In this document: one piece after another, positions 2,677 through 32,264 of the stretch
How the letters are laid out: every line of letters begins with the position of its first letter
How positions within the stretch are numbered: position 1 is the first letter of the stretch
Origin: Berkelbacteria bacterium GW2011_GWE1_39_12
Lineage (GTDB): Bacteria > Patescibacteriota > UBA1384 > UBA12157
Assembly: GCA_001029735.1 (NCBI GenBank)
Contig: CP011213.1
Coordinates: forward strand, 460,613-524,612
DNA: 64,000 bases
Reading direction: 5' to 3'
The notes under the pieces: generated by a model
The model's input: the letters and a program-made list of their open reading frames with translations, nothing else
The model's database searches: none
What the model was told of the DNA's origin: nothing
Program-made: the position numbers and the translations under genes

Positions 2677-2928
2677 ATGAAAGTCGATTTAATCAAAAAA
2701 TATCAAACCCACAAAAATGACACTGGTTCCACTGAAGTTCAGGTAGCTTTGCTCACTGAAAAAATCATGGAATTAGCCAAGCATTTGAAAAAGCATGCCA
2801 AAGATTCAGATTCACGCCGCGGTTTATTGATGATGGTTGGAAAACGCCGCCGCTTGCTTAACTATTTGAAAAAGGGTGAACCTAGGAAGTATGAAAAACT
2901 TATCAAGGACTTAGGTCTTAAGAAATAA
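2677..2928 (+). CDS. rpsO: 30S ribosomal protein S15
   Basis: 83 aa; conserved S15 sequence ([14 protein letters not shown]...[15 protein letters not shown]); classic rpsO-pnp order. Confidence 0.9.
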
Positions 2929-3033
2929 GAACCTCTTCGCGAGAAACTTGTTTCTTGAGTTGTAGAAATAATAAGTTTTTGCATGTCAAAGCTGATTAAA
3001 GATTTAGGTTTAAAAAAATAAGACAGTCAATCG

Positions 3034-3098
3034 GTCATTGCGAGTCGGTAGGCGAAGCAATCTGTTTCAGAGATCGCCACATTGACACTTGCGATGAC
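3034..3098. repeat. palindromic intergenic element GTCATTGCGAG...CTCGCAATGAC
   Basis: 11-nt terminal inverted repeat around an internal palindrome; same family as 12005-12066. Confidence 0.5.
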
Positions 3099-3215
3099 AG
3101 AATAAATAGATTTAAAAATTAATATAGCGTGAGATGCGTAGAGCAGGTAAAGGGATAAAAAATTGTTTTTCTCTCTTTAGGTGTTCTACGTTCTCATGCC
3201 TTTTGAAAGGCAAAA

Positions 3216-5318
3216 ATGTCCCAAGACTTTAAAACGACCATTGCAGATAAGGAATTAGTTATCTCCACTGGTAAATTGGCGCAACTTGCGTCTGGTTCTG
3301 TAACGGTTCGCTATGGCGATACCGTTGTTTTGGCAACCGCCGTTGTTGCGGCCGAAGCTCGCGACGACATCGATTATTTCCCGTTGTTAGTGGATTATGA
3401 GGAAAGATTGTATGCCGCCGGTAAGATTTCTGGTTCACGATTTATTAAAAGAGAAGGCCGTCCGTCAGAACAGGCAATACTTACTTGCCGCTTGATTGAC
3501 CGACCGATTCGTCCTTTGTTTCCAAAAGCGTTCAAGAATGATGTACAGGTTGTTATCACTGTTTTATCTTTCGATTTAGAAAACGACCCAGGTATCATTT
3601 CCATCATCGCCGCTTCAGCCGCTCTTTGCCAGTCAAACGCACCTTTCGAAGGTCCAGTGGCTGCTTCCAGAGTTGGTTTAATCGACGGTGAATTTGTTTT
3701 GAACCCAACCGTTAAGCAATTGGAAAATTCCAAACTTGACTTGGTTGTCGCCGGAAATAAAGAAAAAGTTTTGATGCTTGAGGCCGGTTCCAACGAAGTT
3801 GACGAAAAGACTATGATTGAAGCCATAAAATTCGGTCACAAAGGTCTTCAACCAGCGCTTGAAATTCAAAAAGAGCTTATTTCTGAAACCAAGCATACGG
3901 TTGAAGAAGCTGAAGAACCTGCAATTATTAAAGAAATTAAATCATATCTTGGCAAGAAATTGGCCGAAATCGTTTATGTAACAGATAAAGCCAAGCGTCA
4001 AGAACAAATTTCTGCCTTTGAAAAAGAAGTTTTGGAAAATTTTGAAGGTAACTATAAGCAAATTGAATTAAAATCAGCTTTTGGCCAAGTTTTGGAAAAA
4101 GAAGTTCGTCAAGCTGTCATTGATAAAGAAATTCGTCCAGACGGCCGTAAAATCGACGAGATTCGTCCGATTTCGGTTGAAGTGGACTTATTGCCTCGCA
4201 CCCACGGTTCAGGATTATTTACTCGTGGTCAGACGCAGGTTATGTCGATTATCACCCTTGGACCACCTTCTGAAGAACAGATCATTGAAACAATGGAAGA
4301 AGAAGGTACCAAGAGATATATGCATCATTATAACTTCCCACCATTTTCAACGGGTGAAGTTAAACCAATGCGTTCAACATCACGCCGAGAAATTGGTCAT
4401 GGCGCCTTAGCTGAAAGAGCCTTACTTCCTGTCATTCCTTCACGTGAAGAATTCCCTTATACCATTCGTGTTGTTTCTGAAGTTTTGGCTTCAAATGGTT
4501 CGTCTTCAATGGCTTCTACCTGCGGTTCAACCTTAGCCTTGATGGATGCTGGCGTTCCGATTAAAACTCCTGTTGCCGGTATTGCTATGGGCTTAATGAC
4601 TTCTGAAGATGGCAAAAAACATAAGATTTTGACTGATATTGCCGGTATTGAAGACTTTGCCGGAGATATGGACTTTAAGATTACCGCCACTAAAGATGGT
4701 ATTACTGCTATTCAGTTAGATACCAAATTAAAAGGTTTGGACTTCGACGTTTTACAAGAAGCCTTGGTTGCCGCTCGCAAAGCAAATGACACAATTTTAA
4801 GCAAAATCAACGCTGTTATATCTGAACCTCGCAAAGAACTTTCCAAATATGCCCCAAGAATTGAAACCGTGAAAATCCCGATTGATAAAATCGGTGAAAT
4901 TATCGGTCCTGGCGGCAAGAATATTCGCAAATTGATTGAAGATTGCGGTGGCAAAGAAGTCATTACGATCGATATCGAGGATGATGGTACTGTTACGGTT
5001 GCCTCAATTGAACCAGAAGCTTCTAAGAAAGCTTTGACTTATATCGAAGGCGTTACCAAAGAAGTCGAATTAGGTAAGATTTATGAAGGTCCAGTGACCA
5101 CTATCGTCAAAGACAGAATGTCTGGCAAAGAAATCGGCGCCATTGTTCAAGTTTTGCCAAACCAAGATGGTATGGTTCATATTTCTCAGATTGCCGACGA
5201 ACGGGTAGAAAAAATTGAAGACGTCTTGAAAATCGGCCAAGTCGTTAAAGTGAAAGTCATGGAAATTGATAAGGAACGGGGCAGAGTTTCGCTTTCGATC
5301 AAAGCCGCTAAAGAATAA
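3216..5318 (+). CDS. pnp: polynucleotide phosphorylase (PNPase)
   Basis: 700 aa; two RNase PH domains, KH and S1 C-terminus; directly follows rpsO. Confidence 0.95.
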   Translation: MSQDFKTTIADKELVISTGKLAQLASGSVTVRYGDTVVLATAVVAAEARDDIDYFPLLVDYEERLYAAGKISGSRFIKREGRPSEQAILTCRLIDRPIRPLFPKAFKNDVQVVITVLSFDLENDPGIISIIAASAALCQSNAPFEGPVAASRVGLIDGEFVLNPTVKQLENSKLDLVVAGNKEKVLMLEAGSNEVDEKTMIEAIKFGHKGLQPALEIQKELISETKHTVEEAEEPAIIKEIKSYLGKKLAEIVYVTDKAKRQEQISAFEKEVLENFEGNYKQIELKSAFGQVLEKEVRQAVIDKEIRPDGRKIDEIRPISVEVDLLPRTHGSGLFTRGQTQVMSIITLGPPSEEQIIETMEEEGTKRYMHHYNFPPFSTGEVKPMRSTSRREIGHGALAERALLPVIPSREEFPYTIRVVSEVLASNGSSSMASTCGSTLALMDAGVPIKTPVAGIAMGLMTSEDGKKHKILTDIAGIEDFAGDMDFKITATKDGITAIQLDTKLKGLDFDVLQEALVAARKANDTILSKINAVISEPRKELSKYAPRIETVKIPIDKIGEIIGPGGKNIRKLIEDCGGKEVITIDIEDDGTVTVASIEPEASKKALTYIEGVTKEVELGKIYEGPVTTIVKDRMSGKEIGAIVQVLPNQDGMVHISQIADERVEKIEDVLKIGQVVKVKVMEIDKERGRVSLSIKAAKE

Positions 5319-5340
5319 AAAAGAATTCTCGATATATGAA

Positions 5341-5461: not shown

Positions 5462-5764
5462 ATGGCAACAAAATGTCCGAAATGCGGTCATGAAGAAGGT
5501 GGCAATCCTAGTTACTGCACGGATTGCGGCAACAAGAATGGCCCTTTGCCGACTTGCCTGCATTGTGGCGCTCTGATATGGAGTACTCACTCGCATTGCC
5601 AAGGCTGTGGACTTGATCGGAAGACTGCCCTGACGGATCCTGAAAAACTGGAACAGGAAAAAGCCAGGATTTTGGCCGAAGAGCAGCTTCGCGCAGAAAA
5701 GCGGGCAAAGAAGAAGTGGTGGCAGTTCTGGAGGCAAGATCCAGATCTCCTTGAAGGTCCATGA
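5462..5764 (+). CDS. double zinc-ribbon protein with C-terminal coiled-coil
   Basis: Three CxxC...CxxC pairs (CPKCGH, CTDCGN, CLHCGA, CQGCGL); AGGAGG RBS. Confidence 0.5.
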   Translation: MATKCPKCGHEEGGNPSYCTDCGNKNGPLPTCLHCGALIWSTHSHCQGCGLDRKTALTDPEKLEQEKARILAEEQLRAEKRAKKKWWQFWRQDPDLLEGP

Positions 5765-5899
5765 CCTCGTCGTCATTTCAATCAGCCGTGAGCAAATTGT
5801 CATTAATTTGGCAAAATCTCACGGTTTTTTAATTTTTATGATATATTAGAATTAATAGCCAAGCTAAAGCTTGTCGCGGAATTTTATCAAGGATAAAAT

Positions 5900-6064
5900 A
5901 TGAAAACAATATCAATTCAAGAAAAACAAAACCGAATCTTCCGCAAGATGAGCGCGGAAAAAAAACTTAAAATGATGGATAGCTTTTTCCTTATTGTCAG
6001 GATGCTAATTCCATATCTGATTTATTGCCAGTGTCTAGGAAAAAATAAAAGGTTACAGAGTTAG
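5900..6064 (+). CDS. small hypothetical ORF (54 aa)
   Basis: ATG preceded by the CCAAGC/TTGTCGCGGAATTT box and an AAGGA RBS; no similarity recognised. Confidence 0.2.
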   Translation: MKTISIQEKQNRIFRKMSAEKKLKMMDSFFLIVRMLIPYLIYCQCLGKNKRLQS

Positions 6065-6104: not shown

Positions 6105-6139
6105 AAAGAAAGATCTCTCGACTACGCTCGAGATGACAT
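6105..6139 (+). repeat. 33-35 bp direct repeat AAAGATCTCTCGACTACGCTCGAGATGACAT (copy 1)
   Basis: Repeats at 6467-6499, forming the 3' end of the GIY-YIG gene; GTCATTCCGAC..GGAGGAATC-type motifs at 6075-6100 and 6170-6203. Confidence 0.6.
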
Positions 6140-6210
6140 GATGAAAATATTGTTAGATGACAATAGAATGTCATTCCGACCGAGTGAAACGAGTGGAGGA
6201 ATCTTGAATC

Positions 6211-6501
6211 GTGAAAACATATTATGTTTATATAATGGCCAGTTTTAGTAGGGTTCTATATATCGGTATTACAAATGATCTAGCTCGGAGAGTTTATGAG
6301 CATAAAAACGAGCTAAATGACGGATTTACAAAAAGATATAAATGCAAGAAGTTAGTATATTTTGAGTCGTCTTCCGATGTTAATTCGATCTTGGAAAGAG
6401 AAAAGCAATTAAAAAGGTGGAGACGGGATAAGAAAATCTTTTTAATTGAGAAAGACAATTCGGAATGGAAAGATCTCTCGACTTCGCTCGAGATGACATA
6501 G
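6211..6501 (+). CDS. GIY-YIG nuclease family protein (UPF0213-like)
   Basis: YYVYIM...LYIGITNDLARRVYEH...KQLK motif typical of small GIY-YIG proteins; flanked by direct repeats. Confidence 0.75.
   Translation: MKTYYVYIMASFSRVLYIGITNDLARRVYEHKNELNDGFTKRYKCKKLVYFESSSDVNSILEREKQLKRWRRDKKIFLIEKDNSEWKDLSTSLEMT
6467..6499 (+). repeat. direct repeat copy 2 (GGAAAGATCTCTCGACTTCGCTCGAGATGACAT)
   Basis: 1 mismatch to copy 1; supplies the last codons and the stop of the GIY-YIG gene. Confidence 0.6.
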
Positions 6502-7350: not shown

Positions 7351-9144
7351 ATGAATAACATTTCTACAACAACAGACCCTAAACCTAGTCGCCGTCCTCA
7401 AAGCGGCGGTTATCGTCAGGGAAATTTTAAAAAAACGAATTTCACCAATCAGACAACCCAAAACAAACCGCTTAAAGTGTACAAGGCTGAATCGCCTCGA
7501 TTAAAAATCATTCCTCTTGGAGGAAACGGCGAAATCGGTAAAAACATGATGATTTATGAGTATGGCGACGATATTATCTTGATCGATTGCGGAATGATGT
7601 TCCCTAGATCAGAAATGCTTGGCGTCGACTTTATTATCCCAAATATTTCTTACTTGGAAGAACGCAAGAATAAGATTCGTGGTTTACTTATTACTCATGG
7701 ACATGAAGATCACATTGGTGCCATTCCTTATGTTTGGCCAAAATTACAGTGTCCAATTTATGCAACAAAATTAACTGCCGGCTTTATTGAAAGCAAATGT
7801 GAAGAATTCGGCCTTAAGCCCAATATTCGTGTTGTTCAGGCAGGCGACAAGATTCAACTTGGTGTGTTTAAAATTGAATTTATTCCGTTTTCGCACACTT
7901 TTTTGGATGACGTCGGTTTGGCGTTCGATACCCCAGACGGCTTTGTCATTCACATTGCTGACTTTAAATTAGATACAAATAAGCTTGAATCCCAAAAGGT
8001 TTTAGGCAAGCTTCATGAATTTTCTGAAAAAGGCGTGAAAGTTTTGATGTTGGAATCAACCAATGTTGAAATCAAATCAGAAAAAATCGCTGAAAGCGTC
8101 GTGCATGACACAATTGCCAATATCTTTACCAAGACAAAGGGCAGATTGATTGTTACTTCATTTGCTTCGTCTTTGGACAGAATCCAAGGCGTGCTAAATG
8201 CTGCGCAAAAAACTCATCGCAAAGTTGCGATTGCCGGACGTTCGATGGAAAAGGCAATCAATATTGCTATGAATCTGGGTTATTTGAAAGTGCCACAGAA
8301 TATCTTAGTCGATATTCGCCGCACCGATAATATTTCCGATGACAAAATTGCCATTCTCTGTACCGGTTCACAAGGTGAAGAATATTCCGCATTGGTTAGA
8401 ATGTCGACCGGTGAGCATAGACAGGTTCGAATTAAAAAAGGCGATACAGTCGTTATTTCTGCCGGAGCTATTCCAGGAAACGAACGCACTGTTGCTGATA
8501 CGGTTAACAACCTTTATCGTTTAGGCGCCGAAGTTTATTACGGTGCAGAACGTGAAAAGATTCACTCTTCTGGTCATGCTAAGAGAGATGAATTGAAATT
8601 GGTTATTGCAACTGCTAAACCTGAATATTTTATTCCAATTCATGGTGAATATCGTCATTTAGTATTACATACCAAATTAGCCGTTGAAATGGGCGTCAAA
8701 GAAGGTAATGCCTTCGCCATTGAAGATGGTCAAATCGTTGAAGTTCATGATGGCAAAGCCAATATTTCCGCTCAGAAAATCGATGCCTCTTACGTCTTAG
8801 TTGACGGATTAGGTGTCGGTGATGTTGGAAATATTGTTTTACGCGATCGTCAGGCGATGGCCAAAGATGGTATCTTTGTGGTTATCTTAACCGTCGATCA
8901 CGAAACCGGAAAAATTGTAACGTCTCCAGATATTATCTCCCGCGGATTTATTTATATGCGCGAGAGGGAAGACTTGGTGTTTAAAGCACGTCAAGAGATC
9001 AAAAAGATGTTTCAGAAGCATAATGAAAAATACCCGGCTAACTGGGATTTCATCAAGAAGGCGATGCGCAACGAATTAGGGGAGTTCTTATATGCCGAAA
9101 CAGAACGAAGACCTATGGTGATACCAGTAATCATCGAAGTTTAA
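7351..9144 (+). CDS. rnj: ribonuclease J
   Basis: 597 aa; metallo-beta-lactamase HxHxDH (HGHEDHIG), beta-CASP and C-terminal domain. Confidence 0.9.
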   Translation: MNNISTTTDPKPSRRPQSGGYRQGNFKKTNFTNQTTQNKPLKVYKAESPRLKIIPLGGNGEIGKNMMIYEYGDDIILIDCGMMFPRSEMLGVDFIIPNISYLEERKNKIRGLLITHGHEDHIGAIPYVWPKLQCPIYATKLTAGFIESKCEEFGLKPNIRVVQAGDKIQLGVFKIEFIPFSHTFLDDVGLAFDTPDGFVIHIADFKLDTNKLESQKVLGKLHEFSEKGVKVLMLESTNVEIKSEKIAESVVHDTIANIFTKTKGRLIVTSFASSLDRIQGVLNAAQKTHRKVAIAGRSMEKAINIAMNLGYLKVPQNILVDIRRTDNISDDKIAILCTGSQGEEYSALVRMSTGEHRQVRIKKGDTVVISAGAIPGNERTVADTVNNLYRLGAEVYYGAEREKIHSSGHAKRDELKLVIATAKPEYFIPIHGEYRHLVLHTKLAVEMGVKEGNAFAIEDGQIVEVHDGKANISAQKIDASYVLVDGLGVGDVGNIVLRDRQAMAKDGIFVVILTVDHETGKIVTSPDIISRGFIYMREREDLVFKARQEIKKMFQKHNEKYPANWDFIKKAMRNELGEFLYAETERRPMVIPVIIEV

Positions 9145-9204: not shown

Positions 9205-10026
9205 TTATTTGTTTACGGTATTGTTTTTCATTACGCCTTCGACGCCGGCCCCTATGATCCTAAATTCCTCACGGGTGATTTCTTCCATTGCTGCAGCTCT
9301 TTCACCTGGATCTGTTAAATTCCATAGTTCATGGATCATACCAGTTAAGTCTTCTCTGACTTTTTCGTTGACGTCCCCAATGGTAGCCCAGGCAATCGGA
9401 ATCGGTTCTTTAACCGTTGTTGAAGAACCGTCTGATGTCGGAGCCTGTACTTCACGAACAATTCTCGCATGATCGCCCTTGCCGTCTGGCCACTGATCTT
9501 TTCTTATTGCTTGCAGTCGATTTTGAATGAAGTGAGCAGTATGCTTATCATCTTCACCGCAAATTTCGTAAATTTTCTCATTGAACTTTTTTTCATCAGC
9601 CCTGATAGTCTCGTCCGTATCCTTTCCAATATATTCCCCCTCGAACCTATTTGTTTGATGATAAACATCGCCGAGCTTCATGTTTAAATCTAAGACATCT
9701 CGATCGCTATTTGCAACAATACCTTCAGGGGTTCTTTTTGCTCCGCCAATATGGAACGCGGCAGCTGCTTCTGCCGGAAGTGCCATTCTGATGCCGCCCT
9801 GAATTTTTAGAAATTCTCTCGCACCCAGCTCTTTAGATTGGGCAGGTTGGCTAACCATCATTCCCATTAGAGCTGCAGCAGGGATTAAAAACTTGCCGCC
9901 AGGAAACTTCACCGCAAAATTAGCAAATCTTTCCATTAATCTTACACTATGTGTATCCGTTTCATGACCGTTTTCAGGTGCGACAAAATCTTCACCTTCT
10001 TGGCCTTGTGTCAGTTGTTCAGACAT
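9205..10026 (-). CDS. hypothetical protein (273 aa)
   Basis: Long ORF with RBS-like GGAGAAGAA upstream on the minus strand; no family recognised. Confidence 0.4.
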   Translation of the reverse strand: MSEQLTQGQEGEDFVAPENGHETDTHSVRLMERFANFAVKFPGGKFLIPAAALMGMMVSQPAQSKELGAREFLKIQGGIRMALPAEAAAAFHIGGAKRTPEGIVANSDRDVLDLNMKLGDVYHQTNRFEGEYIGKDTDETIRADEKKFNEKIYEICGEDDKHTAHFIQNRLQAIRKDQWPDGKGDHARIVREVQAPTSDGSSTTVKEPIPIAWATIGDVNEKVREDLTGMIHELWNLTDPGERAAAMEEITREEFRIIGAGVEGVMKNNTVNK

Positions 10027-11257: not shown

Positions 11258-11992
11258 TTACTTTAATCCATTCCATGCCATCTCGAAAATGGCGCGTTGG
11301 GTTTGGGCGATCTCTTTAGATTCAATGAGGACACCGAAAGGTTCGGGCGCATAAGTAATGATAATCATTTTATCAGCATAAATATTAATTTCGTTTTTAA
11401 TGGGGAAGATTTTGGAATCGGCGATTTTTACGGTTCGAAGTTGAGCGGTATTATCTTCGAGATATTTTTTTAGTTCAAGTGTGTTTTGGTATATCCCTCG
11501 AAGCTTGATGTTTTTGACAACGCGTCGTTTCACATAGTCAATCGAATAGTCCTCGAGATATTTTACAGTGTCGTTGGTGACATAAGCTAGTATCTCGTCG
11601 CCAGATTTAAGTGACGACAGAGTATCTTCGTATAATTGTTTGATCCCTTCAAAACCGGTAAAGTAGGCCACTTTTGGTTTCTTAGGGTTGGTGTTAAAAA
11701 TCGATTCCAATATTGGCAAATCGTTTTTGAGTTCTCGTTTTTGGGCTTCAATAATATCCAGAAGCTTTTCAGGCTGATGGGCGATAAAGTAGCGCTTTTT
11801 ATCTTCGAATGATTCGTAAATAAAACCCTGTTTTTGCAATCGATACAAAATATCGTAAGTCGTCGGCCGCTTGATATTGGATTTTTGGGCGACCGCGTTG
11901 GCCGTCGCTTTTTCAAGCTGAAGAAGGGCAAAATAAACTTCTTGCTCTTTTTGGTTGAACCCTAATTTTTCTAATGATTGTAAATATTGCAT
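11258..11992 (-). CDS. TrmB-family transcriptional regulator
   Basis: N-terminal winged HTH (LGFNQKEQEVYFALLQL...ATANAVAQKSNIKRPTTYDILYRLQKQGFI) and TrmB-like C-terminal domain. Confidence 0.7.
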   Translation of the reverse strand: MQYLQSLEKLGFNQKEQEVYFALLQLEKATANAVAQKSNIKRPTTYDILYRLQKQGFIYESFEDKKRYFIAHQPEKLLDIIEAQKRELKNDLPILESIFNTNPKKPKVAYFTGFEGIKQLYEDTLSSLKSGDEILAYVTNDTVKYLEDYSIDYVKRRVVKNIKLRGIYQNTLELKKYLEDNTAQLRTVKIADSKIFPIKNEINIYADKMIIITYAPEPFGVLIESKEIAQTQRAIFEMAWNGLK

Positions 11993-12004
11993 TTTTCTTT
12001 TTCT

Positions 12005-12066
12005 GTCATCGCGAGCCGAAGCGTGGCGATCTATAGATTGCTTCGTCGCAAGCTTCTCGCAATGAC
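12005..12066. repeat. palindromic intergenic element GTCATCGCGAG...CTCGCAATGAC
   Basis: Same terminal inverted repeat family as 3034-3098; internal ATCTATAGAT palindrome. Confidence 0.5.
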
Positions 12067-12920: not shown

Positions 12921-13428
12921 TCGAACTGGTCGGCTGGCGGAGAAATCCGCCGGCCCAAACCTCGGATGCATTATTAAAATATAGTGCATCGGAGAGCTTG
13001 AAATCGCACTTTGACAATTTGAAGGAGGAATTTTAATTGAAATCGATTGTTTGGGCCATCTGTTTCCTTGCTATGGTTTTCCCGATTATGGTGATGAGAG
13101 GGGAAAAATATTCATGGCGTTTCTGGATGATAATTATCATTGGTAGTGTTTTTGTCGGGAATATCACAGCAAAAATATTCCAGTAAATTCAATGCACGAG
13201 GATCGCAGGAGGGAAAAAAATGGAATTCATTTGTAATTTTGTGGTAGCTATGATAATCGTTGAAATCATTGTTCGTTTGAGAAAGAAGTGGAGGTAAAGA
13301 AGAAGGGTGAAAAAATGATCAATAACCACCGGGTGGCGAAGCGCTTCCCGGTTTTTTTTAATAATAAAAATATTTGTTCTGGATACCGGATCCTGCTTGT
13401 AGCCGGTCCGGCATGACAAGTCAAATAA

Positions 13429-13512
13429 AAAAGCGCGAAACTGCATATTAGATCCCTCGACTGCGCTCGGGATGACAACCTTTAGTGTCATTCCGACCAA
13501 CGTGGAGGAATC
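13429..13512 (+). repeat. 84-bp direct repeat, copy 1
   Basis: Identical to 13918-14001; contains the CTCGACTGCGCTCGGGATGACA and GTCATTCCGACCAACGTGGAGGAATC motif family. Confidence 0.8.
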
Positions 13513-13532
13513 TGTCGTGTGACATTATAGTA

Positions 13533-13917: not shown

Positions 13918-14001
13918 AATAAAGCGCGAAACTGCATATTAGATCCCTCGACTGCGCTCGGGATGACAACCTTTAGTGTCATTCCGACCAACGTGGAGGA
14001 A
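13918..14001 (+). repeat. 84-bp direct repeat, copy 2
   Basis: 100 percent identical to copy 1. Confidence 0.8.
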
Positions 14002-14506
14002 TCCTTCATGAATGTGGCAATAATGTACAAAAAAGTGCGAAACAGTGCGCGCTCCATATTTTTTAAGCATAACAAAAAAGCGCGATCGAGATGCGGTCCA
14101 TTAATTTTAATTATAAACCGATCGTCGCGCTTTGTTGAGTAAAGACTTATGAGTTCTATCCTACCTTTACCAGCTGCCTGGTGAACGTAAGATTGGAAGC
14201 CTTTAATCCCACTCCTTTTAATAATGTGCTTGGGTAAGCTCTAGTGAAGTCTTTGAGAAGCGAACTTATCCACAATTTGTTAATGGGATTATATTAGTAT
14301 AAAACATACGTCAACGTTTGTCAAGCGTTTAACCTTATAGCGCTGTCTTAAATTAATTAATTTGTTTTACGAAAATGTATTTTAAACCTGTTAATAATGT
14401 AAATAATTGTTTTTGGTCGCTGATTGATCTTTTGCTCCGAAAATGATATAATGGAATCACTGGGTATCAACCTGTTTTAACTTTTGGTATTCAGAGGGGA
14501 AAAATA

Positions 14507-14620
14507 ACGCCCCACTTCGCTAAAGCTTCGCGGGACACACTTCGCTCAAATTACAACAGTTAATGGAGCGGCTTGCCACGCGTAGCCCGATGCGGAGCAG
14601 AGGGCGAAGTGTGGAGGGAT
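14507..14620 (+). promoter_or_regulatory. conserved leader element, copy A (about 112 nt), ending in the SD GGAGGG 8 nt before the ftsK ATG
   Basis: Three-copy element (also 18870-18972 and 29189-29289); conserved CACACTTCGC ... GCGAAGTGTG long-range inverted repeat next to the SD; internal hairpin with a G-U/A-U substitution between copies. Confidence 0.6.
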
Positions 14621-14626
14621 TTTTTT

Positions 14627-16870
14627 ATGGCCAAGAGAAAGTACAGACGAAAAGGTCAACGACTTTCAGTCTGGGAAGAAATGGATTGGAGTGTACAACC
14701 GGAGACAGCAAAATCGGTTACTTCAGTCATTTTGATTATCTTGGGCTTAATCATTTTATTAGGTATTTTTGGACTCGCCGGCGTTACTGGAAAATTTTTC
14801 TTACGTCTTTCAACTGATCTCTGGGGATTATTGGGATATTTAATTCCCTTTATTTTTCTTACCTACGGAGTTGGACTCTTAATTAAAAGCGAACGTTTTC
14901 AAATAAAGCCGATGACGGTTGTCGGCACTGTTTTATTGATGATATTTTTGCCGGCGCTTATTCACCCGGTCGGCGGAGCTATCGGCGGTGGTATTAGAAG
15001 CCTATTTGTGGCAATGGTTGGTTTCTACGCCAGCTTAATTTTGCTTTTTGGTTTAACCATTGTGGGATTGCTTGTGACGATGAATACTTCCATTGTTGAT
15101 CTTTGGCAGCGAATAAAACCGGAGAGTGGCGGGGAAGCGTCTGGTGGCGGAGTTCGTGTGAATGAAAACGGCGCTCGAGCATCGGTTTTCACCTTGCCCA
15201 ATCGCCAAGCACCTCAGCCTCATAGCAGTATGATTCAGCCTTTCCAGGGCGGGGACAAAACATGGAACTTTCCCCCGCTTGATTTATTGGAAACTGGGTC
15301 AGGTAAAGCCACCTCTGGGAACATCCCAAAGAACGTCGATATTATTCAAAAGACTCTATCTGATTTTGGCGTACCGGTGGCGATGGGTGATGTTAATGTT
15401 GGTCCGACAGTTACGCAATATACATTAAAGCCTGGGACTTCGGTTAAACTAAATCAAATTACGGCTCGCGCCAATGATCTTTCCTTAGCTCTGGCTCAGC
15501 ACCCGATTCGTATCGAAGCGCCAATTCCGGGAAAATCTGCCGTTGGTATAGAAATTCCAAACAAAACTTTTGCCACTGTTTCACTCCGCGAAGTTTTGGA
15601 AAGTGAAGAATGCAAAGCTTCAAAATCCAACCTTACTTTAGCCATTGGCCGCGATGTTGCCGGTCAAGCTGTGGCCGCCGATCTAAAACAAATGCCTCAC
15701 CTTCTGATCGCTGGTGCGACTGGTTCAGGAAAATCGGTTGGTATCAACGCCATGATTTTATCTTTGCTTTATCAGAACTCGCCAAATGACCTAAGATTGA
15801 TTTTAGTTGACCCTAAACGTGTTGAATTTACTCATTATAATGACGTACCGCATCTTCTTTGCCCGGTTGTTTTCGATGTCGATAAAACCGTTTCGGCGCT
15901 CCGCTGGGCGGTGGCGGAAATGGATCGACGTTTCAGAGTTTTGCAGGAAACCGGAAGACGCAATATTGAAGCTTATAATCAAAATCCGCCAAACGGAAAA
16001 CTACCTTACATTGTTATTTTTATCGATGAGTTGGCTGATCTTATGGCTCAAGCTGGGAATGAAGTGGAATCGGCAATTGTGCGTCTGGCCCAGATGGCCA
16101 GAGCCGTTGGTATTCACTTGGTTGTGGCAACTCAGCGTCCTTCTGTCGACGTTATCACTGGTTTGATTAAGGCTAATATTACTAACCGTATTGCTTTTGC
16201 GGTCGCCTCTCAAATTGATTCCCGTACTATTCTGGACGCTTCTGGCGCTGAAAAACTTTTGGGCAAAGGTGATATGCTCTGGTTGGGTAACGATCTCGGT
16301 AAGCCAAAACGTATCCAAGGTGTTTTAATTACAGATAAAGAAGTTGATAAAATTACTAATTTCTTAAAGAATGAAAGTGCGCCGCAATATGACGAAACAA
16401 TTTTATCCTATCATACGCCGTCGCAAGGCGGAGTGGGCGGCGGAGGCGATATGAGTTCTTCTGACGATCTTTATAATGAAGCCAAGGAAGTCGTAGTGAT
16501 GGCTGGCAAAGCATCGGCCTCGCTCTTGCAAAGACGTCTGCGGGTCGGTTATGCTCGAGCTGCCAGACTTTTAGATATGTTGGAATCAGAGGGAATAATT
16601 GGTCCGGCTGATGGCGCCAAGCCACGTGACGTGATGATAGACCCCGTCGCTTTAGAGCACGAAAGAAATCAAGCCTCAATGCCGATGAACCAAGCACCTC
16701 AGGCTCATTTTGCGCCGACGCCATCTGGATTTAGCCGTCCGACTTCACCTGAACCGCAATATACTCAAGAACCGGCATTACCTCAAGCGCCTCAATATCC
16801 TGCAGATGGTCCTGATGAATTTACAATTAATGGCGGCACTGAAAACGATGTAGATAATTTTGGAAGGTAA
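14627..16870 (+). CDS. ftsK: DNA translocase FtsK/SpoIIIE
   Basis: N-terminal TM segments, Walker A GATGSGKS, C-terminal winged-helix gamma domain; the ORF-track N-terminal extension lies inside the repeat, so ATG 14627 is preferred. Confidence 0.9.
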   Translation: MAKRKYRRKGQRLSVWEEMDWSVQPETAKSVTSVILIILGLIILLGIFGLAGVTGKFFLRLSTDLWGLLGYLIPFIFLTYGVGLLIKSERFQIKPMTVVGTVLLMIFLPALIHPVGGAIGGGIRSLFVAMVGFYASLILLFGLTIVGLLVTMNTSIVDLWQRIKPESGGEASGGGVRVNENGARASVFTLPNRQAPQPHSSMIQPFQGGDKTWNFPPLDLLETGSGKATSGNIPKNVDIIQKTLSDFGVPVAMGDVNVGPTVTQYTLKPGTSVKLNQITARANDLSLALAQHPIRIEAPIPGKSAVGIEIPNKTFATVSLREVLESEECKASKSNLTLAIGRDVAGQAVAADLKQMPHLLIAGATGSGKSVGINAMILSLLYQNSPNDLRLILVDPKRVEFTHYNDVPHLLCPVVFDVDKTVSALRWAVAEMDRRFRVLQETGRRNIEAYNQNPPNGKLPYIVIFIDELADLMAQAGNEVESAIVRLAQMARAVGIHLVVATQRPSVDVITGLIKANITNRIAFAVASQIDSRTILDASGAEKLLGKGDMLWLGNDLGKPKRIQGVLITDKEVDKITNFLKNESAPQYDETILSYHTPSQGGVGGGGDMSSSDDLYNEAKEVVVMAGKASASLLQRRLRVGYARAARLLDMLESEGIIGPADGAKPRDVMIDPVALEHERNQASMPMNQAPQAHFAPTPSGFSRPTSPEPQYTQEPALPQAPQYPADGPDEFTINGGTENDVDNFGR

Positions 16871-18020: not shown

Positions 18021-18386
18021 ATGTCCAAGATATTGATGATTGAAGACGATATAATGTTGGCTCAGATGTATCAACGTAAATTAGAGGAGAACGGCTTATC
18101 GGTAAAGCTCGCTTATTCTGGTACGGAAGGCTTAGCGGAAGCGCAAATGGAAAAGCCTGATCTAATTTTACTCGACATCATGATGCCGAAGATGAATGGC
18201 TTTGATGTTTTAAAGCGTCTGAAAGAAAATATTATCTTGAAGGAAATTCCTGTAATTGTATTAACGGCTTTAACTCAAGACAGCGACAGAGAAGAAAGTA
18301 AAAAGTTAGGAGCTGTCGATTACTTAATTAAATCTGATTTTACGCCTGGTCAAATAATCGATAAAATTCAGAAATATCTGAAATAA
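18021..18386 (+). CDS. single-domain response regulator (receiver only)
   Basis: Paralogue of the previous gene, 121 aa. Confidence 0.85.
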   Translation: MSKILMIEDDIMLAQMYQRKLEENGLSVKLAYSGTEGLAEAQMEKPDLILLDIMMPKMNGFDVLKRLKENIILKEIPVIVLTALTQDSDREESKKLGAVDYLIKSDFTPGQIIDKIQKYLK

Positions 18387-18494
18387 AATTTAGTTGAAAT
18401 TCCATAAAATTCATCAAGCGAAATCTTTATAAAGCATTTTGCTTTGCAAGCTACGCTTATAGACTTTCGACTAAAGCGACCAAAGGGAGCGGTT

Positions 18495-18869
18495 ATGGCT
18501 AAAATTTTGATTGTCGAAGACGATGTAACACTTTCCAAAATGTACCAGAAGAAGTTAATGCTGGCCGGGTATGCTGTCGAAGCATCTTTTAATGGTAAAG
18601 ATGCAGTTGTAAAAACCGCTGAAGAAATGCCAGATTTGGTCTTACTTGATATAATGTTACCAGGAATTGATGGCTTCGAAGTGGTGAAACAATTGAAAGC
18701 CAATAAGAAAACAGCGAGTATCCCGATTATTATTTTGACTAACCTTGGGACATCAGAAGTTTTTATTGATGAAGCTAAAATGCTAGGTGTACAGCAATAC
18801 CTAGTGAAGTATAAGACTTCTGGGACAGAGTTAGTTGAGAAAATAAAGGAAGAATTAGAAATTAATTAA
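18495..18869 (+). CDS. single-domain response regulator (receiver only)
   Basis: MAKILIVEDD start with AAGGGAG RBS; the upstream part of the ORF-track ORF is probably untranslated. Confidence 0.8.
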   Translation: MAKILIVEDDVTLSKMYQKKLMLAGYAVEASFNGKDAVVKTAEEMPDLVLLDIMLPGIDGFEVVKQLKANKKTASIPIIILTNLGTSEVFIDEAKMLGVQQYLVKYKTSGTELVEKIKEELEIN

Positions 18870-18972
18870 ACGCCCCACTTCGCTAAAGCTTTGCGGGACA
18901 CACTTCGCTCCAAATAGAGTGAGGCTTGTCACGCATAGCCCGATGCGGAGCTGAGGGCGAAGTGTGGAGGGG
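18870..18972 (+). promoter_or_regulatory. conserved leader element, copy B
   Basis: About 90 percent identical to copy A; immediately 5' of the GAF-PAS kinase. Confidence 0.6.
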
Positions 18973-21109
18973 CAAAATAGAAGAGAAAAAAGCAGTCCAG
19001 ACTGAAATACAAACAGAAGTTCAGTCTCTTTATCAGATCTCGCAAATCGCGGCCAAAGCTAAAAATCTTGATGCTTTGTGGCAGCCGCTTTTTGATGAAA
19101 TTTCAAAAATCATGCAGGTTGATGCCGGTACTTTAATGATACTGGAAGATGACGAGTTGGTAAGAAAAACGGCTAAAGGACTGGGCGATAATATCATGAA
19201 AGAGCCGCCAATTCCAAGATCAAAAGGTGGCGTTTCTTGGAAAGCCGTCACGACTCGTGATGAAGTGGTAATAAATGACCTTTCGGCTTCAGACATCGCT
19301 TCACAGGCGCTTAAGGAAGGTGAGTTTCATTCATTGATGACTGTACCGATGATGGTCCGAGAACAAGTTATCGGTGTAATCAGTATTTTTGCCCGTAAGG
19401 GTCGAAACTTTTCCGATTCTGACGTTTCCATGTTTAGAGCCATTGCTAACCAAGCCGCTTTAGCGATTATCAGTTTAACCTCGGCCGAATTTTTAAAAGA
19501 AAATAAGAAGAGACTAGCCGAACTTTCGGCTTTAAATCAAATTTCCAGATCAGTGGCGACCTTATTTGATTTTGAAGAAACTTTGTTTTCGATTATAGGT
19601 TTAATAACTAAACAACTAAGAGGCGATCAGGGTGTGATTGTTCTATTTGATCACAAGGAAAAGTTACTTAAAGCTGCTCTGCCTGCCTTTAATTTGACCC
19701 CTTCTCAGGTTAGGGATTTTCGTACTCGAACAGATGAAGGTGCGACCGGCCAGGCATTTTGCAAAGGTATCCCGATTAATATCGAGACGATAGATCAAGA
19801 AACCAAAGAAACTTTAGAACGAGCAAAAATTACTGGTGTTAAAAGTATGTTGGTCGCCCCGCTGAAAGTTAAGTCTCAAACCTTGGGCGTTATTCATGTC
19901 TTTTCGTCGAAAGAAAAAAACTTTACTGCTGATGACCTCAAACTATTTAATATTCTAACTTCGTCAGCGGCGGTGGTGGTCAATTCGTCATATATTTATC
20001 AAAAAATCGAAGAGGAAAAAAAGAAAGACGACGCTTTACTTTCTTCGATAGGTGAAGGAGTTTTGGCGGTAAACGATAACCGAGACATTATCTTGCTAAA
20101 CGCTGCCGGAGAAAGAATTACGGGCTTTTTACAAGAAGAATTATTAGGAAAATCTGTGGAAAGTACCCTGCAAATTCTTAACGACAAAAAAGTGATGATT
20201 TCTCGGGAGGAATCTCCTATAGCCAAAGTTTTAACCGACGGCAAGCCAATTTTCATGAACAACGTCTTTTTAAAAAGACATGACGGCGTATTATTTCCTG
20301 CCCGCTTTAACGTCGCCGCCACTCATGATGCCATGGATAAAATTATTGGCGCCATTGTGGTCTTTAATGATATAACGCATGATTTGGAAGTCGAACGGAT
20401 GAAGCAAGAACTTATTTCGATAGCTACTCATGAATTAAGGACGCCGATTACTGGTATTAAAGGTTATCTGGAAATGATTTTGGACGGGGATACGGGTGGC
20501 GTCAATAAGGAAACAAAAGAAGTGCTAGATGAAATGTCGGCCATCAATGGACGTATTGCAGACTTGGTTGATGATTTGTTAAATATTGGCCGGATTGAAC
20601 AGGGAAGAATTGAGATCAAACCAAAGCCAACTAACCTAATTGTTCTGATCTATAACTGTATCAAAGAATTATCAGTTCAGGCTAAAGAGAAAAATTTAGA
20701 GTTGATTTTTAATCCGCCAACCGATATTCCTCAAATTTTAGCTGATCCAGACAGAACAAAACAAATATTAGTGAACCTTATCGGTAATGCTATTAAATAC
20801 ACACCAGAAGGCAAGAAGAGCAAGGTTGAGGACTGGAATGAAATTGAAATTACCTTGGATAAAAAGGGTAAAGATATCGTTTGCCACGTTAAAGATCATG
20901 GTTTAGGTATTTCCAAAGAAGGGCAAAAGCAGCTTTTCCAGAAGTTCTCACGCGTTAAAACTGATCAAACGCGAATGATCACAGGTACTGGTTTGGGGCT
21001 ATGGATTACTAAACAGATTGTAGAGATGATGAGCGGAAAGATTTGGGTTGAATCTGTTGAGGGTAAAGGTTCAACATTCTCGTTTACCTTGCCGCAAAAT
21101 AGCGTCTGA
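18926..21109 (+). CDS. cytoplasmic sensor histidine kinase (GAF-GAF-PAS-HisKA-HATPase_c)
   Basis: Two GAF-like regions, one PAS region, H-box ATHELRTPITGIKGY, and ATPase boxes. The start is uncertain: TTG 18926 or GTG 18962 inside the repeat, because the first ATG (19112) would truncate GAF-1. Confidence 0.8.
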   Translation: MSRIARCGAEGEVWRGKIEEKKAVQTEIQTEVQSLYQISQIAAKAKNLDALWQPLFDEISKIMQVDAGTLMILEDDELVRKTAKGLGDNIMKEPPIPRSKGGVSWKAVTTRDEVVINDLSASDIASQALKEGEFHSLMTVPMMVREQVIGVISIFARKGRNFSDSDVSMFRAIANQAALAIISLTSAEFLKENKKRLAELSALNQISRSVATLFDFEETLFSIIGLITKQLRGDQGVIVLFDHKEKLLKAALPAFNLTPSQVRDFRTRTDEGATGQAFCKGIPINIETIDQETKETLERAKITGVKSMLVAPLKVKSQTLGVIHVFSSKEKNFTADDLKLFNILTSSAAVVVNSSYIYQKIEEEKKKDDALLSSIGEGVLAVNDNRDIILLNAAGERITGFLQEELLGKSVESTLQILNDKKVMISREESPIAKVLTDGKPIFMNNVFLKRHDGVLFPARFNVAATHDAMDKIIGAIVVFNDITHDLEVERMKQELISIATHELRTPITGIKGYLEMILDGDTGGVNKETKEVLDEMSAINGRIADLVDDLLNIGRIEQGRIEIKPKPTNLIVLIYNCIKELSVQAKEKNLELIFNPPTDIPQILADPDRTKQILVNLIGNAIKYTPEGKKSKVEDWNEIEITLDKKGKDIVCHVKDHGLGISKEGQKQLFQKFSRVKTDQTRMITGTGLGLWITKQIVEMMSGKIWVESVEGKGSTFSFTLPQNSV

Positions 21110-21165: not shown

Positions 21166-21240
21166 GGTAAGCTTCGCTTACCGCGGAATTTTTCCCTGGA
21201 AGGAAAAATATAGTTAAGCTGTCGATTACCGCGGAATTTT
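21166..21240 (+). promoter_or_regulatory. two tandem TTACCGCGGAATTTT boxes, each followed by a GGA(A/G)AAAATAT RBS-like segment
   Basis: Variant of the CCAAGC/TTGTCGCGGAATTT element; sits directly upstream of the 21253 ATG. Confidence 0.5.
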
Positions 21241-21252
21241 CAAGGAGAAAAT

Positions 21253-21648
21253 ATGGCAAAAGCCAAATTGCTTTTAGTTGAAGACGACGTAACTTTATCT
21301 AAAATGTATGAAAAGAAATTTAAGACCGAAGGGTATGATGTTGAAGTAGCCTATGATGGTTTAGATGGTTTAGATAAAGCAGTTAAGGGGAAACCGGATT
21401 TAGTGGTTTTGGACATCATGCTGCCAAAAATGGATGGTTTATCAGTATTTAAAAAAATGCGTAGTACTCCGGACACTTTTAAAACTCCAGTATTACTACT
21501 GACCAACTTTGATCAAGAAGATACTGTTTTTGAATGTTTCAAACTCGGGGCAGTTGATTATTTGTTAAAATCTTCAGTCACTCCAAAGCAGGTAGTAGAA
21601 AAAGTCGGTAACTTGCTTAAAGGTATCGAAGGCCCGATAACAGAGTAA
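21253..21648 (+). CDS. single-domain response regulator (receiver only)
   Basis: Fourth receiver paralogue, 131 aa. Confidence 0.85.
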   Translation: MAKAKLLLVEDDVTLSKMYEKKFKTEGYDVEVAYDGLDGLDKAVKGKPDLVVLDIMLPKMDGLSVFKKMRSTPDTFKTPVLLLTNFDQEDTVFECFKLGAVDYLLKSSVTPKQVVEKVGNLLKGIEGPITE

Positions 21649-28784: not shown

Positions 28785-29188
28785 AAATAAATCCAAGACA
28801 AAAAGGCCAAGCTTTATTAATCGGTATTTTAATTATTTTTACTGCTGCGATTTCTTTGGCAGTGGCCTCCGGCGTAATTGCTTCAAACCAGGTTTCAGTG
28901 AGCCAAAATCAGAAACTGTCAGCCCAGGCTTCGAACTTGGCTCATACCTGTCTAGATAACGGTTTAATGAATTTCAGCCGTGGCAATTTTACTGCGCCGG
29001 CTCAATTGAATAGTAATGGTGGAACTTGTACAATAAATATAAGCGGTAGTAGTCCAATATACCAAGTGACATCCACCGCTGAGTTTAATTTAGCGATATT
29101 CAATAAAAAAGTTACCAGAAAAATAGAGGCGACAGTTACAACCGTTGGTGGTTTAACAAGAGTCACATCTTTGCAGGAAATATATTAA
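28781..29188 (+). CDS. pilin-like hypothetical protein
   Basis: N-terminal GQALLIGILIIFTAAISLAVA hydrophobic segment in pilin position. Confidence 0.4.
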   Translation: MKINPRQKGQALLIGILIIFTAAISLAVASGVIASNQVSVSQNQKLSAQASNLAHTCLDNGLMNFSRGNFTAPAQLNSNGGTCTINISGSSPIYQVTSTAEFNLAIFNKKVTRKIEATVTTVGGLTRVTSLQEIY

Positions 29189-29289
29189 GTCCTACTCCGC
29201 TAAAGCTACGCAGGACACACTTCGCTCATAGTTAGAGTGAGGCTTGCCAGCGTAGCCCGAAGCGAAGACGAGGGCGAAGTGTGGAGGGG
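29189..29289 (+). promoter_or_regulatory. conserved leader element, copy C, ending GGAGGGG 3 nt before the pilM GTG
   Basis: The 3' 40 nt and central GGACACACTTCGCTC are identical to copies A and B; the 5' arm has diverged. Confidence 0.6.
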
Positions 29290-29291
29290 CA

Positions 29292-30677
29292 GTGCAGATT
29301 TCGGGACTTCAAATTAGCGGAACTCGAGTTTCTTTGCTTACCTTGAAAAAACAGGGCGATGCTTTGCATGTCCTTTCTTTTGCTACGCTCGAATTAAAAG
29401 ACGGTATTATTGAAAACGGTATTTTAAAAAATCCGAGAGAACTAACCACGGCTTTAATTGCTTTAAAAAAGATGGGTAAGCCTAAAAAAATTGGCAGCAA
29501 CTATGTGGTTGTGGGTTTACCGGAGGAATTAGTTTACTTAACCGTTAAGCCTTTTCCTTCAATTGAAGAAGACGATATCAGAGATGCTTTAGAACTTAAC
29601 TTAAGGGAGTTCATGCCCGGCGATTCAGAAAAAATCTTTTGGGGTTTTCAGAGTATCAAAACCAAAGAAAATGCTGAAGTTCTCTTGGCCTCGGTTAATC
29701 ATGAAGCCTTAACCGCATATCTCAGCGTGTTTGCAAATGCCAAACTCACACCAGTGGCGGTTGAGCCATCGTCCCTGGCTTCGGCCCGCGCTTTTAAAGA
29801 AATCAGCCCATCGTTATTAGTTGATATCGATAAAAAAAATGTATTGGTTGCAGCTTTTAGCGATAAGATTGTTCGTTATAGTAACGGTTTTCCATTTGAT
29901 GGTGAGAATCTGGCTTTGACAATCAAAAAGATAATAGGTTTTTATAAATCAAAGAGAGAACTTGAATCGGTAGACATTATAATTTCCGGACGTGTGTCGG
30001 CAGACGAAATTTCCAAGCTCAATAAATATACCGGTGAAAATGTTTTAGCTGCCAAAGAAAAATTAATTTTTAAAAACGGAGAGGTTAGTTCGCCAGTCGT
30101 CCTAGGCTTAGCAATGAGAGGCTTGTTAGAGCAGAAAGACGATGAAAATCTTTCCTTATTACCCCTTGGGACAGCCGAAGGATATGAGGAAAAGAAGGCT
30201 CTGTATTCTGTTGGTGCCATCGCCAACCTTACTACCGTTGTCAGTATTCTCTTTATTGCTATTTTTATTGGCTTTATTGTCCTTTTAAATTATTTGAGTT
30301 ATTCGTCTGATCAGCAACTTTCGACTTTAAGTAGTCAAAAGATTGATCCGCAAACTACTGAAGCCCAAAAAAAGTTGGCGGCTTTGGAGCCAAAAGTTTC
30401 CTATATTAAAACTATTTCCAAGGGAGTTTCGCCCATTGGCGATAAAATTCAAGGAGTCACTTCTGCTGCTCCCGATGGAATAAATTTAAAAAGTGTAACG
30501 ATGGCCAAGGACACTTCGACTATCCAAGCGGTAGGTACTGCTCAGGATCGTGATACTTTGGGTGTCTTTAAAGATGGGTTAATAGAGAACAAGCTTTTTT
30601 CTAAAGTCGATCTTATCTCGACGAGCGTGACTGATACCTCGGTTGATTTCACCATTAACATAGCCATAAAGAAATAA
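29292..30677 (+). CDS. pilM: PilM-PilN fusion (actin-like ATPase domain + TM + periplasmic PilN-like domain)
   Basis: PilM-type N-terminus, then TM helix LTTVVSILFIAIFIGFIVLL and a C-terminal periplasmic region; GTG start. Confidence 0.7.
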   Translation: MQISGLQISGTRVSLLTLKKQGDALHVLSFATLELKDGIIENGILKNPRELTTALIALKKMGKPKKIGSNYVVVGLPEELVYLTVKPFPSIEEDDIRDALELNLREFMPGDSEKIFWGFQSIKTKENAEVLLASVNHEALTAYLSVFANAKLTPVAVEPSSLASARAFKEISPSLLVDIDKKNVLVAAFSDKIVRYSNGFPFDGENLALTIKKIIGFYKSKRELESVDIIISGRVSADEISKLNKYTGENVLAAKEKLIFKNGEVSSPVVLGLAMRGLLEQKDDENLSLLPLGTAEGYEEKKALYSVGAIANLTTVVSILFIAIFIGFIVLLNYLSYSSDQQLSTLSSQKIDPQTTEAQKKLAALEPKVSYIKTISKGVSPIGDKIQGVTSAAPDGINLKSVTMAKDTSTIQAVGTAQDRDTLGVFKDGLIENKLFSKVDLISTSVTDTSVDFTINIAIKK

Positions 30678-32236: not shown

Positions 32237-32264
32237 ATAATTAAGGGGCAACGGAGAAAATATG

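Follow-up and report, generated by a model that had tools for sequence, protein, structure and literature searches.

The question raised by this locus is whether a sequence of about 100 nucleotides (nt) that stands in front of three genes of one cluster is a regulatory leader of these genes or an element that was inserted there. The stretch analysed here (the window, 64,000 nt; contig CP011213.1 of Berkelbacteria bacterium GW2011_GWE1_39_12, positions 460,613 to 524,612) contains three copies of this sequence, all on the plus strand, which we call copies A, B and C and which precede ftsK, a GAF-PAS histidine kinase gene and pilM. An earlier note on this DNA had read them as a conserved structured leader that provides the Shine-Dalgarno (SD) sequence of each gene, can sequester or expose the region next to it and appears to tie the three genes together. 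We found a real multi-copy, strongly folding, non-coding element whose copies in the window are paralogous insertions. It is probably a lineage-restricted imperfect-palindrome repeat of ~95-105 nt, comparable to MITEs (transposable elements of the miniature inverted-repeat type) and to repetitive extragenic palindromic (REP) sequences, which was copied 5' of the native SD sequences of ftsK, two-component and type IV pilus genes. The comparisons below point away from a ligand-sensing RNA or a dedicated switch, and away from a conserved ftsK-kinase-pilM regulon.

All three copies were found at the sites given for them in the earlier note, with a measured identity of 83-88% (A/B 88%, A/C 83%, B/C 84% by alignment), and the window has exactly three occurrences of the invariant 19-mer GAGGGCGAAGTGTGGAGGG, against an expectation of 0 (100 shuffles). 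The copies are 94-106 nt long and have no open reading frame (ORF) common to all three. Their similarity ends precisely with the stop codon on one side and with the SD on the other: copies B and C start 0-1 nt past the stop codon of the upstream gene, the repeat proper terminates at ...GGCGAAGTGT, the whole gap from native stop codon to native SD is occupied, and GGAGGG(G) abuts the 3' end of every copy. Segment 2 (CACACTTCGC) and segment 3 (GCGAAGTGTG) are the two longest stretches without any variation between the three copies (post-hoc P ~0.02); reading the sites confirmed that they are perfectly complementary in every copy, and the alignment confirmed that the 5' arm of copy C has diverged, both as claimed before. 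Near-identical strains (groundwater contigs) carry identical copies, and all three copies in the window lie on the strand with positive GC skew. A coding sequence or N-terminal extension was ruled out, as the orthologs of FtsK (MAKRKYRRKG), PilM (VQISGLQISG) and the kinase align only from start codons past the element.

The SD sequences and start contexts are native to the genes and were not brought by the element. We compared the syntenic cluster of six relatives (PilB 69-76% identical) and the PNPase-to-ftsK region of L034, the closest available relative (PNPase 90% identical; L0xx are labels of the relatives' sequences). Five relatives without such a repeat at the site keep an identical GGAGGG(G) plus start context at the orthologous sites, and pilM of L020, L024 and L029 retains GGAGGGGCA plus start without the element, while in L027 a small GC hairpin, unrelated to the element, precedes the same SD of pilM. 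Because element-free relatives, L034 apart, carry the same SD and start strings, GGAGGG(G) belongs to the genes, and the claim that the element supplies the SD does not hold for any of ftsK, kinase or pilM. The window-type element was not found before ftsK in L020 or L034, before the kinase gene in L020, L022, L027 or L028, or before pilM in L020, L024, L027 or L029, and the 22 kb of L034 contained none. Presence and absence are thus polymorphic at orthologous sites, with empty sites at ftsK (L020, L034), kinase (L020) and pilM (L020, L024, L029), and the description as a conserved leader fails, since most relatives including the closest one have no element there. Conservation upstream of orthologous genes across related species, by which a leader or riboswitch would be recognized, was not seen. 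Native spacers in these operons measure 0-26 nt.

A search with a profile hidden Markov model and a covariance model (R1) built on the shared core found only six copies in ~258 kb from nine genomes: A, B and C, and three copies of a diverged subfamily in two other Berkelbacteria. The subfamily ends in ...CAACACTTCGCCGGCGGCTTGCCAACCG..AGCCTTGGCGAAGGTTGGAGGG and is located upstream of ftsK in L028, at the same site and with a 5' flank homologous to that of copy A, and in L022 upstream of pilM and of a 203-amino-acid (aa) pilus-cluster gene (x203). All six copies (6/6) are in sense orientation, immediately upstream of an ORF and abutting the SD; no intragenic or randomly oriented copy, of the kind that the earlier note had named as evidence against its reading, was seen, the three additional copies being sense and 5' of starts as well. 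In the core common to both subfamilies, ACACTTCGC(C) is followed by a GGCTTGCCA hairpin and this by GGCGAAG(TG/GT)T, with its end at the SD, and the non-palindromic GGCTTGCCA motif is found in all six copies with one substitution, in copy B. Copies within one genome are far more alike than same-site copies of different genomes. PilB identities put the window genome outside the group {(L020, L028), (L022, L027)}, and inside it the most similar genomes alternate in having and lacking the element; with this grouping, either the family is older than the split and was lost repeatedly, or it entered a few permissive sites repeatedly.

Wider searches added no copies. Exact 19-mer scans of genome and metagenome contigs returned only isolated chance 19-21-mers in unrelated GC-richer contigs; the metagenome collection is incomplete (it did not yield the JGI contig L016, although that contig contains copy C), and absence there is therefore weak evidence. 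The protein search with the six-frame translation of the element, aimed at copies hidden in N-terminal extensions or in spurious ORFs, matched only this organism's own 727-aa kinase, viral contigs (also with a gapped core pattern) and distant BLAST against plasmid and phage collections gave no match, and Rfam 15 had no relevant match, either at gathering thresholds over the whole window or by E-value around copy A.

The element is predicted to form a very stable hairpin of -41 to -48 kcal/mol. Sense-strand fold energies of A, B and C are -43, -48.2 and -41 kcal/mol (z -2.3 to -3.5), and both strands fold strongly (z -2.2 to -3.5), the plus strand 1.5-6 kcal/mol better than the minus strand; the antisense fold being almost as strong as the sense fold, we take the element for an imperfect palindrome. 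Indeed, the best fold of the window copies is one long imperfect palindrome, and the whole-element hairpin has 32 pairs with 90.5% of cells paired, compared with 28-44% in slid controls. The difference CGCGT versus CGCAT between copies A and B, which the earlier note had described, is real; the G-to-A change, read there as G-U versus A-U, is accompanied in the whole-element hairpin by C-to-T in the 5' arm (GCTTCGC to GCTTTGC), which makes it a true compensatory change from C-G to U-A.

The best-conserved inverted repeat is that of the internal segment 2 with the terminal segment 3, which the earlier note had proposed as a helix that sequesters or exposes the region by the SD. This helix extends to 12 bp with one U-G pair, and over the six copies 90% of cells are paired, with seven invariant pairs and one in which both partners have changed; the second subfamily lacks two central pairs and has a register shift in their place. 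In all three window copies it is 6-8 kcal/mol worse than the minimum-free-energy fold. A partner for the 5' arm CCCCACTTCGC exists in A and B, namely GCGAAGTG..GGGG, but this arm has diverged in C. For the L022/L028 subfamily, by contrast, the helix of segments 2 and 3 is itself the minimum-free-energy fold, with the SD left free of pairing. By prediction, access to the SD is reduced in A and B and high in L022 and L028, with C in between. These predictions give no consistent sequestration mechanism, the proposed switch is not supported for the window, and an SD-sequestering switch as a general mechanism was rejected. Covariation is too weak to establish one defined RNA fold, shuffle controls were not convincingly exceeded (six or three sequences, effectively two lineages), and the favoured fold differs between the subfamilies.

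The operon junctions of this cluster have been colonised repeatedly by different hairpin repeats in different lineages. At the response-regulator/kinase junction, L022 has an AT-rich hairpin of ~170 nt, L027 a GC-rich one (GCCCGCCCGC...GCGGGCGGG), L028 an AT-rich one of ~100 nt and L020 no hairpin element. A TAGAAC...CACTACCTGG family has four copies in the L022 cluster, two of them ending exactly at GGGAGGGG, L024 has two copies of another palindromic family around pilC, and L020 and L029 have almost no long spacers. Because unrelated palindromes colonise the same junctions, a specific regulatory tie between ftsK, kinase and pilM is argued against, and the statement that the element ties together a DNA translocase, a sensor kinase and pilus assembly was not borne out, given unrelated palindromes at the same and at neighbouring junctions in sister genomes.

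These unrelated junction palindromes in sister Berkelbacteria, which often run from stop codon to SD, were located in L022 at 2850-3000, 8470-8530, 9925-9995 and 18363-18420, in L024 at 11734-11916 and 13121-13282, in L027 at 1060-1125 and 16605-16632, and in L028 at 5207-5333, 5710-5783 and 6164-6290. At 5315-7697 of L022, in the junction between the GAF-PAS kinase and the next response-regulator gene, we also observed an insertion resembling a diversity-generating retroelement (a bAvd-family gene and a reverse transcriptase fragment), which is absent from the window.

No promoter-like site inside the element and no terminator-like site was found at any copy. Copies B and C stand between co-oriented genes, and copy A stands ~55 nt downstream of a promoter-like site and thus within the ftsK 5' untranslated region (UTR). 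An internal promoter and an intrinsic terminator were rejected accordingly, as no U-tract belongs to the element and the T-run after copy A is the native spacer between SD and ATG, present in L020 too. An integron attC or dif-like site was rejected since the flanking genes are core and syntenic, and a target-site duplication made of SD-like sequence was rejected since the 5' flanks contain no GGAGG.

Among described systems, the closest analogue in layout is REP2 of Neisseria, a sequence of 100-150 nt with stem-loops that stands immediately upstream of ORFs, pilC1 included, with a ribosome-binding site (RBS) at its 3' end (PMC3184786). REP2, like the similar inverted-repeat sequences of Borrelia plasmids, shares with our element the intergenic position, the internal stem-loops without clean terminal inverted repeats and the pilus-related genes downstream. 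However, REP2 carries its own promoter, RBS and ATG, whereas here no internal promoter-like site is found, SD and start are native and sequence similarity is absent. Correia/NEMIS and ERIC/IRU MITEs are also short multi-copy palindromes in operon spacers and UTRs, variable at orthologous sites, which form long mRNA hairpins, and their processing within mRNA by RNase III (Correia) or RNase E (ERIC) alters transcript levels (PMC10969869; PMC3184786). Correia duplicates TA, whereas our element shows no target-site duplication, and it differs from MITEs further by having no well-defined terminal inverted repeats, no known parent insertion sequence (IS), few copies and, in all six of them, a strictly sense orientation and a position abutting the SD. 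REP/BIME/REPIN sequences resemble it as GC-rich extragenic palindromes in an AT-richer genome which are transcribed within operons, and REP/BIME can bind proteins and make the flanking mRNA more stable or less so (PMC3184786; PMC3116915). Yet REPs measure 20-40 nt, lie usually 3' of genes or between convergent genes, number hundreds of copies and are accompanied by a RAYT gene, whereas here the unit is ~100 nt and 5' of genes, and the 71 kb sampled contain three copies, none of them in inverted doublets, and no RAYT. Hairpins close to the SD or involved in translational coupling are well known, such as the MS2 coat/replicase junction and RNA thermometers, and these are gene-specific and conserved. 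Our element has a comparable stable stem with the 3' arm at or overlapping the SD, and the 5' arm of B and C is within ribosome reach of the stop codon; in contrast to such hairpins it is a dispersed repeat, and it is predicted to occlude the SD in A and B, unlike in L022 and L028.

Several observations weigh against a mobile repeat of the MITE/REP type. We found no target-site duplication (5' flanks AT-rich or a stop codon, 3' flank GGAGGG, no direct repeat), no clean terminal inverted repeats, the 5' arm of copy C being diverged, and no transposase or RAYT gene in ~71 kb of this genome (Pfam annotation and our own scans), nor did a further 54 kb of sequence from the window genome or 22 kb more of L022 contain any copy. 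The ftsK site occupied in both the window and L028, and the pilM site in both the window and L022, need repeated targeting or ancestral presence with losses. The uniform sense orientation with zero spacing to the SD, all within one gene cluster, makes the six-copy layout more orderly than random selfish spread, and the invariance of segments 2 and 3 while the remainder varies, together with the non-palindromic GGCTTGCCA kept across subfamilies, hints at sequence-specific constraint. The same facts would suit a dedicated cis-regulatory leader module similar to Neisseria REP2, a mobile or duplicated RNA cassette before selected cluster genes that co-regulates their translation or stability, either through recognition by one factor (a protein or small RNA) or through switching between 5'-arm:segment-3 and segment-2:segment-3 pairing. 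It would account for one gene cluster being used in three genomes, for the retention of segments 2 and 3 in the second subfamily, for the L022/L028 fold with its free SD and for the better folding of the plus strand, and it has a precedent in REP2, which lies upstream of 14 contact-induced genes including pilC1 (PMC3184786). We consider it unlikely all the same, because the element is absent from all three orthologous sites of L020 and from ftsK in L034, the carrier genes differ by genome (x203 has it in L022 and lacks it in the window), the window copies disfavour the switch helix, the predictions for the SD do not agree among copies, compensatory changes number just one or two, and the same junctions hold unrelated palindromes; in addition, relatives were sampled around this cluster, which makes the cluster specificity partly an ascertainment bias. 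A REP2-like regulon, for which strict orientation, confinement to one cluster and the conserved core could speak, is possible but rather improbable. The same improbability, if anything deeper, attaches to a mobile "plug-in" leader, in which sense hairpin cassettes (this repeat and the unrelated palindromes) would target, or be selected at, stop/SD junctions of the supra-operon of ftsK, two-component and type IV pilus genes, the core ACACTTCGC...GGCTTGCCA...GGCGAAG would be bound by a specific factor, and pilus and division genes would be co-controlled by a REP2- or CREN-like system that arose independently; if it were true, both groups of genes would be under joint control, in their translation or processing, in these episymbiotic bacteria, which belong to the Candidate Phyla Radiation (CPR).

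The palindrome could also act at the level of DNA, as a cruciform or single-strand hairpin that serves as a binding or recombination site and is transcribed incidentally; candidate partners would be a Y1/HUH enzyme (IS200/IS605 or RAYT-like), gyrase or IHF-type proteins as at REP/BIME, or another site-specific enzyme. The strong folding of both strands, the compensatory maintenance of the palindrome in the A/B pair and in the L022 pair, the missing target-site duplication, as in IS200/IS605-type elements, the position of all window copies on the positive-GC-skew strand, which would fit a replication-strand bias, and the REP/BIME precedent (PMC3184786) are consistent with such a site. We nevertheless regard it as very doubtful: no HUH or other transposase occurs in ~71 kb of this genome, no flanking target motif is conserved beyond AT-rich sequence, the G-U pairs slightly favour a sense RNA, and the orientation of the element is inseparable from that of the genes in these data. 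Inherited similarity, in which an ancestral leader was duplicated with its gene or kept from a common 5' region, is scarcely credible; same-site occupancy at ftsK (window, L028) and pilM (window, L022) is what it would predict, but ftsK, the GAF-PAS kinase gene and pilM are unrelated genes, the boundaries at stop codon and SD are sharp, and copies in one genome are much more alike than same-site copies across genomes.

Under the preferred reading, a lineage-restricted MITE/REP-like repeat, the element would be read through as part of the operon mRNA, and its placement between stop codon and SD may mostly reflect which insertions survive in a compact genome, since native spacers of 0-26 nt tolerate little other position and explain much of the SD-adjacent placement. 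Function, if any, would be generic to intercistronic hairpins, namely processing, stability or translational coupling. The long duplex might be a processing site for a double-strand RNase (RNase III-type), as for Correia elements, and after cleavage the 3' arm may act as a 5' protective hairpin for the downstream cistron; ERIC elements are known to change the decay of mRNA (PMC10969869; PMC3184786). As the 5' arm begins 0-1 nt after the stop codon in B and C, SD exposure there could be coupled to upstream translation: a ribosome terminating upstream would melt the 5' arm and transiently free the 3' arm and the SD region.

Small intergenic repeats have hardly been described in CPR bacteria, and full-text literature searches returned no report of them from Berkelbacteria or any other CPR bacterium; to the extent of these searches, the present case is the first for these bacteria, though the kind itself, co-transcribed intergenic palindromic repeats, is already known. 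The hairpin elements at the junctions of the pilus cluster respect stop codon and SD. If they modulate processing or coupling, they would offer cheap, evolvable retuning of pilus and division protein stoichiometry in very small genomes; if they have no function, this is an ordinary selfish repeat, and the main value of the analysis lies in removing a false lead to a three-gene regulon. The element also matters for annotation, since it inflates the number of apparent "leaders" and misleads gene callers, which placed the kinase start at an in-frame GTG (18962) or TTG (18926) inside copy B.

The three copies of the window lie within a conserved, co-oriented ftsK / two-component / type IV pilus cluster with the order ftsK, histidine kinase, three response-regulator genes, GAF-PAS kinase, response regulator, pilin, pilB, pilC, further genes and pilM. 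The coordinates of the copies, of the native start sites and of the orthologous sites are collected in the table.

Table. Repeat copies, start sites and element-free orthologous sites (positions refer to the window; rows with L0xx labels refer to relatives)
Feature	Position	Strand	Remarks
Copy A	14507..14612	+	106 nt; 10-nt apical insertion compared with B and C; in ftsK 5' UTR; R1 score 73 bits
Copy B	18870..18965	+	fills the spacer from response-regulator TAA stop (18867-18869) to GAF-PAS histidine kinase SD; 70.6 bits
Copy C	29189..29282	+	fills the spacer from TAA stop (29186-29188) of a 135-aa gene to pilM SD; 5' arm diverged; 68.6 bits
Segment 2, CACACTTCGC	14536-14545, 18899-18908, 29216-29225	+	invariant in A, B, C; part of the core common with the L022/L028 subfamily
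Segment 3, GCGAAGTGTG	14604-14613, 18957-18966, 29274-29283	+	complementary to segment 2; less perfectly to 5' arm CCCCACTTCGC
ftsK promoter-like site, TTGATC-17-TATAAT with upstream TG	14424..14452	+	GAAATGATATAAT conserved in L020 and L028
ftsK SD and start	14613..14629	+	native; GGAGGG 14613-14618, spacer ATTTTTTT, ATG 14627-14629, SD motif 8 nt ahead of ATG; context GGAGGGATTTTTAAAATGGCC also in L020 (no element) and L028 (related element)
Kinase SD and start	18966..18979	+	native; GGAGGGG + CAAA + apparent non-canonical ATA start 18977, SD motif 4-5 nt ahead; GGAGGGGCAAAT(A/C)GAA conserved in L020, L022, L028; variant GGGAGGGGTGAATCGAA in L027
pilM SD and start	29283..29294	+	native; GGAGGGG + CA + GTG start 29292, SD motif 3 nt ahead; GGAGGGGCA(T/G)(T)G conserved before pilM in L020, L022, L024, L027, L029
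ftsK site without element, L020			context AATCGGAGGGATTTTTAAAATGGCC; SD/start string AATCGGAGGGATTTTTAAAATG
ftsK site without element, L034			own, different SD AAAGGAGTGGAATG (AAAGGAGTGG)
Kinase site without element, L020			context GAGGAGGGGCAAATAGAA; spacer only 15 nt
pilM site without element, L020			context TTTTGGAGGGGCATG
pilM site without element, L024			GGAGGGGCAGTTG directly after stop codon (stop, then GGAGGGG)
pilM site without element, L029			context AGGAGGGGCAGTG

The apparent start codon of the kinase gene is AUA (window 18966-18979, L020 ~6318-6335) or AUC (L022 ~2985-3000, L027 ~1112-1127, L028 ~6280-6296), 4-5 nt past the conserved GGAGGGG, and the conserved N-terminus is encoded without a usable ATG, GTG or TTG; elsewhere gene callers chose downstream ATGs, while in the window they chose the GTG or TTG within the repeat. 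The repeat itself holds GAGGG-CGAA-GTG, an SD-like sequence followed by GTG (window 29279-29317; also at 14609 and 18962). Copies A and B have this GTG in the reading frame of the gene that follows, and the GTG of copy C begins an upstream ORF of 12 codons (VWRGSADFGTSN*) which overlaps the pilM start; the motif is not kept in the L022/L028 subfamily.

A second repeated leader-like motif was observed on the plus strand directly before start codons, at 5854-5903, 21176-21255 (tandem), 32262-32314 and 40622-40700 of the window, and also in L020 (~15340-15400) and L032 (~3290-3330 and ~6330-6370); its sites include one before a response-regulator gene and one in the recA region. It consists of a small variable-stem hairpin (for example CCAAGC-TAAA-GCTTG), then GTCGCGGAATTT, then AATTTTC(TCC), the last being complementary to the SD region GGAGAAAAT, and a perfect 9-bp SD-sequestering hairpin is present at 32287-32308. 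The stems vary among copies while CGCGGAA is kept, GCTAAAGCTT..CGCGG is common to this motif and to the 5' module of the element studied here, and no Rfam match was obtained. Of the candidate regulatory RNAs in the window, this motif may be the one of greater interest.

Further repeats of the window belong to other GC-rich small families (for example AGATCCCTCGACTGCGCTCGGGATGACA...GTCATTCCGACC...GTGGAGGAATC), which flank small minus-strand ORFs, are unrelated to the element studied and resemble the widespread palindromic repeats of the "...CGCTCGCGATGACA" type; they comprise a 93-nt pair at 13427-13519 and 13918-14010 (96% identical; related cores at 6108-6139 and 6468-6499) and an inverted pair at 3071-3120 and 11983-12032. 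Downstream of genes there are a tandem repeat with a 33-nt unit (TATAAGCGAAGCTTGCAACTCGCCGTCGCTCGT x3.4, 51139-51252; partial copy 48652-48699) and a dispersed 103-nt repeat (48587-48689 and 51074-51176), and a dispersed 76-nt repeat (46435-46510, 48779-48854 and 54174-54249) ends in a terminator-like GC hairpin with a T-run. A group I intron (Rfam RF00028, 46096-46318, 55.5 bits; region 45806-46370) is adjoined by a 107-aa ORF with an HNH endonuclease match (45806-46129) and followed by an apparent 3' tRNA half (...GGTCGTCCGTTCGAATCGGACCCGGGGAGCCA), probably an intron-split tRNA gene which ARAGORN did not call. Finally, the 259-aa gene at 62016-62795 matches the heliorhodopsin family (Pfam PF18761).

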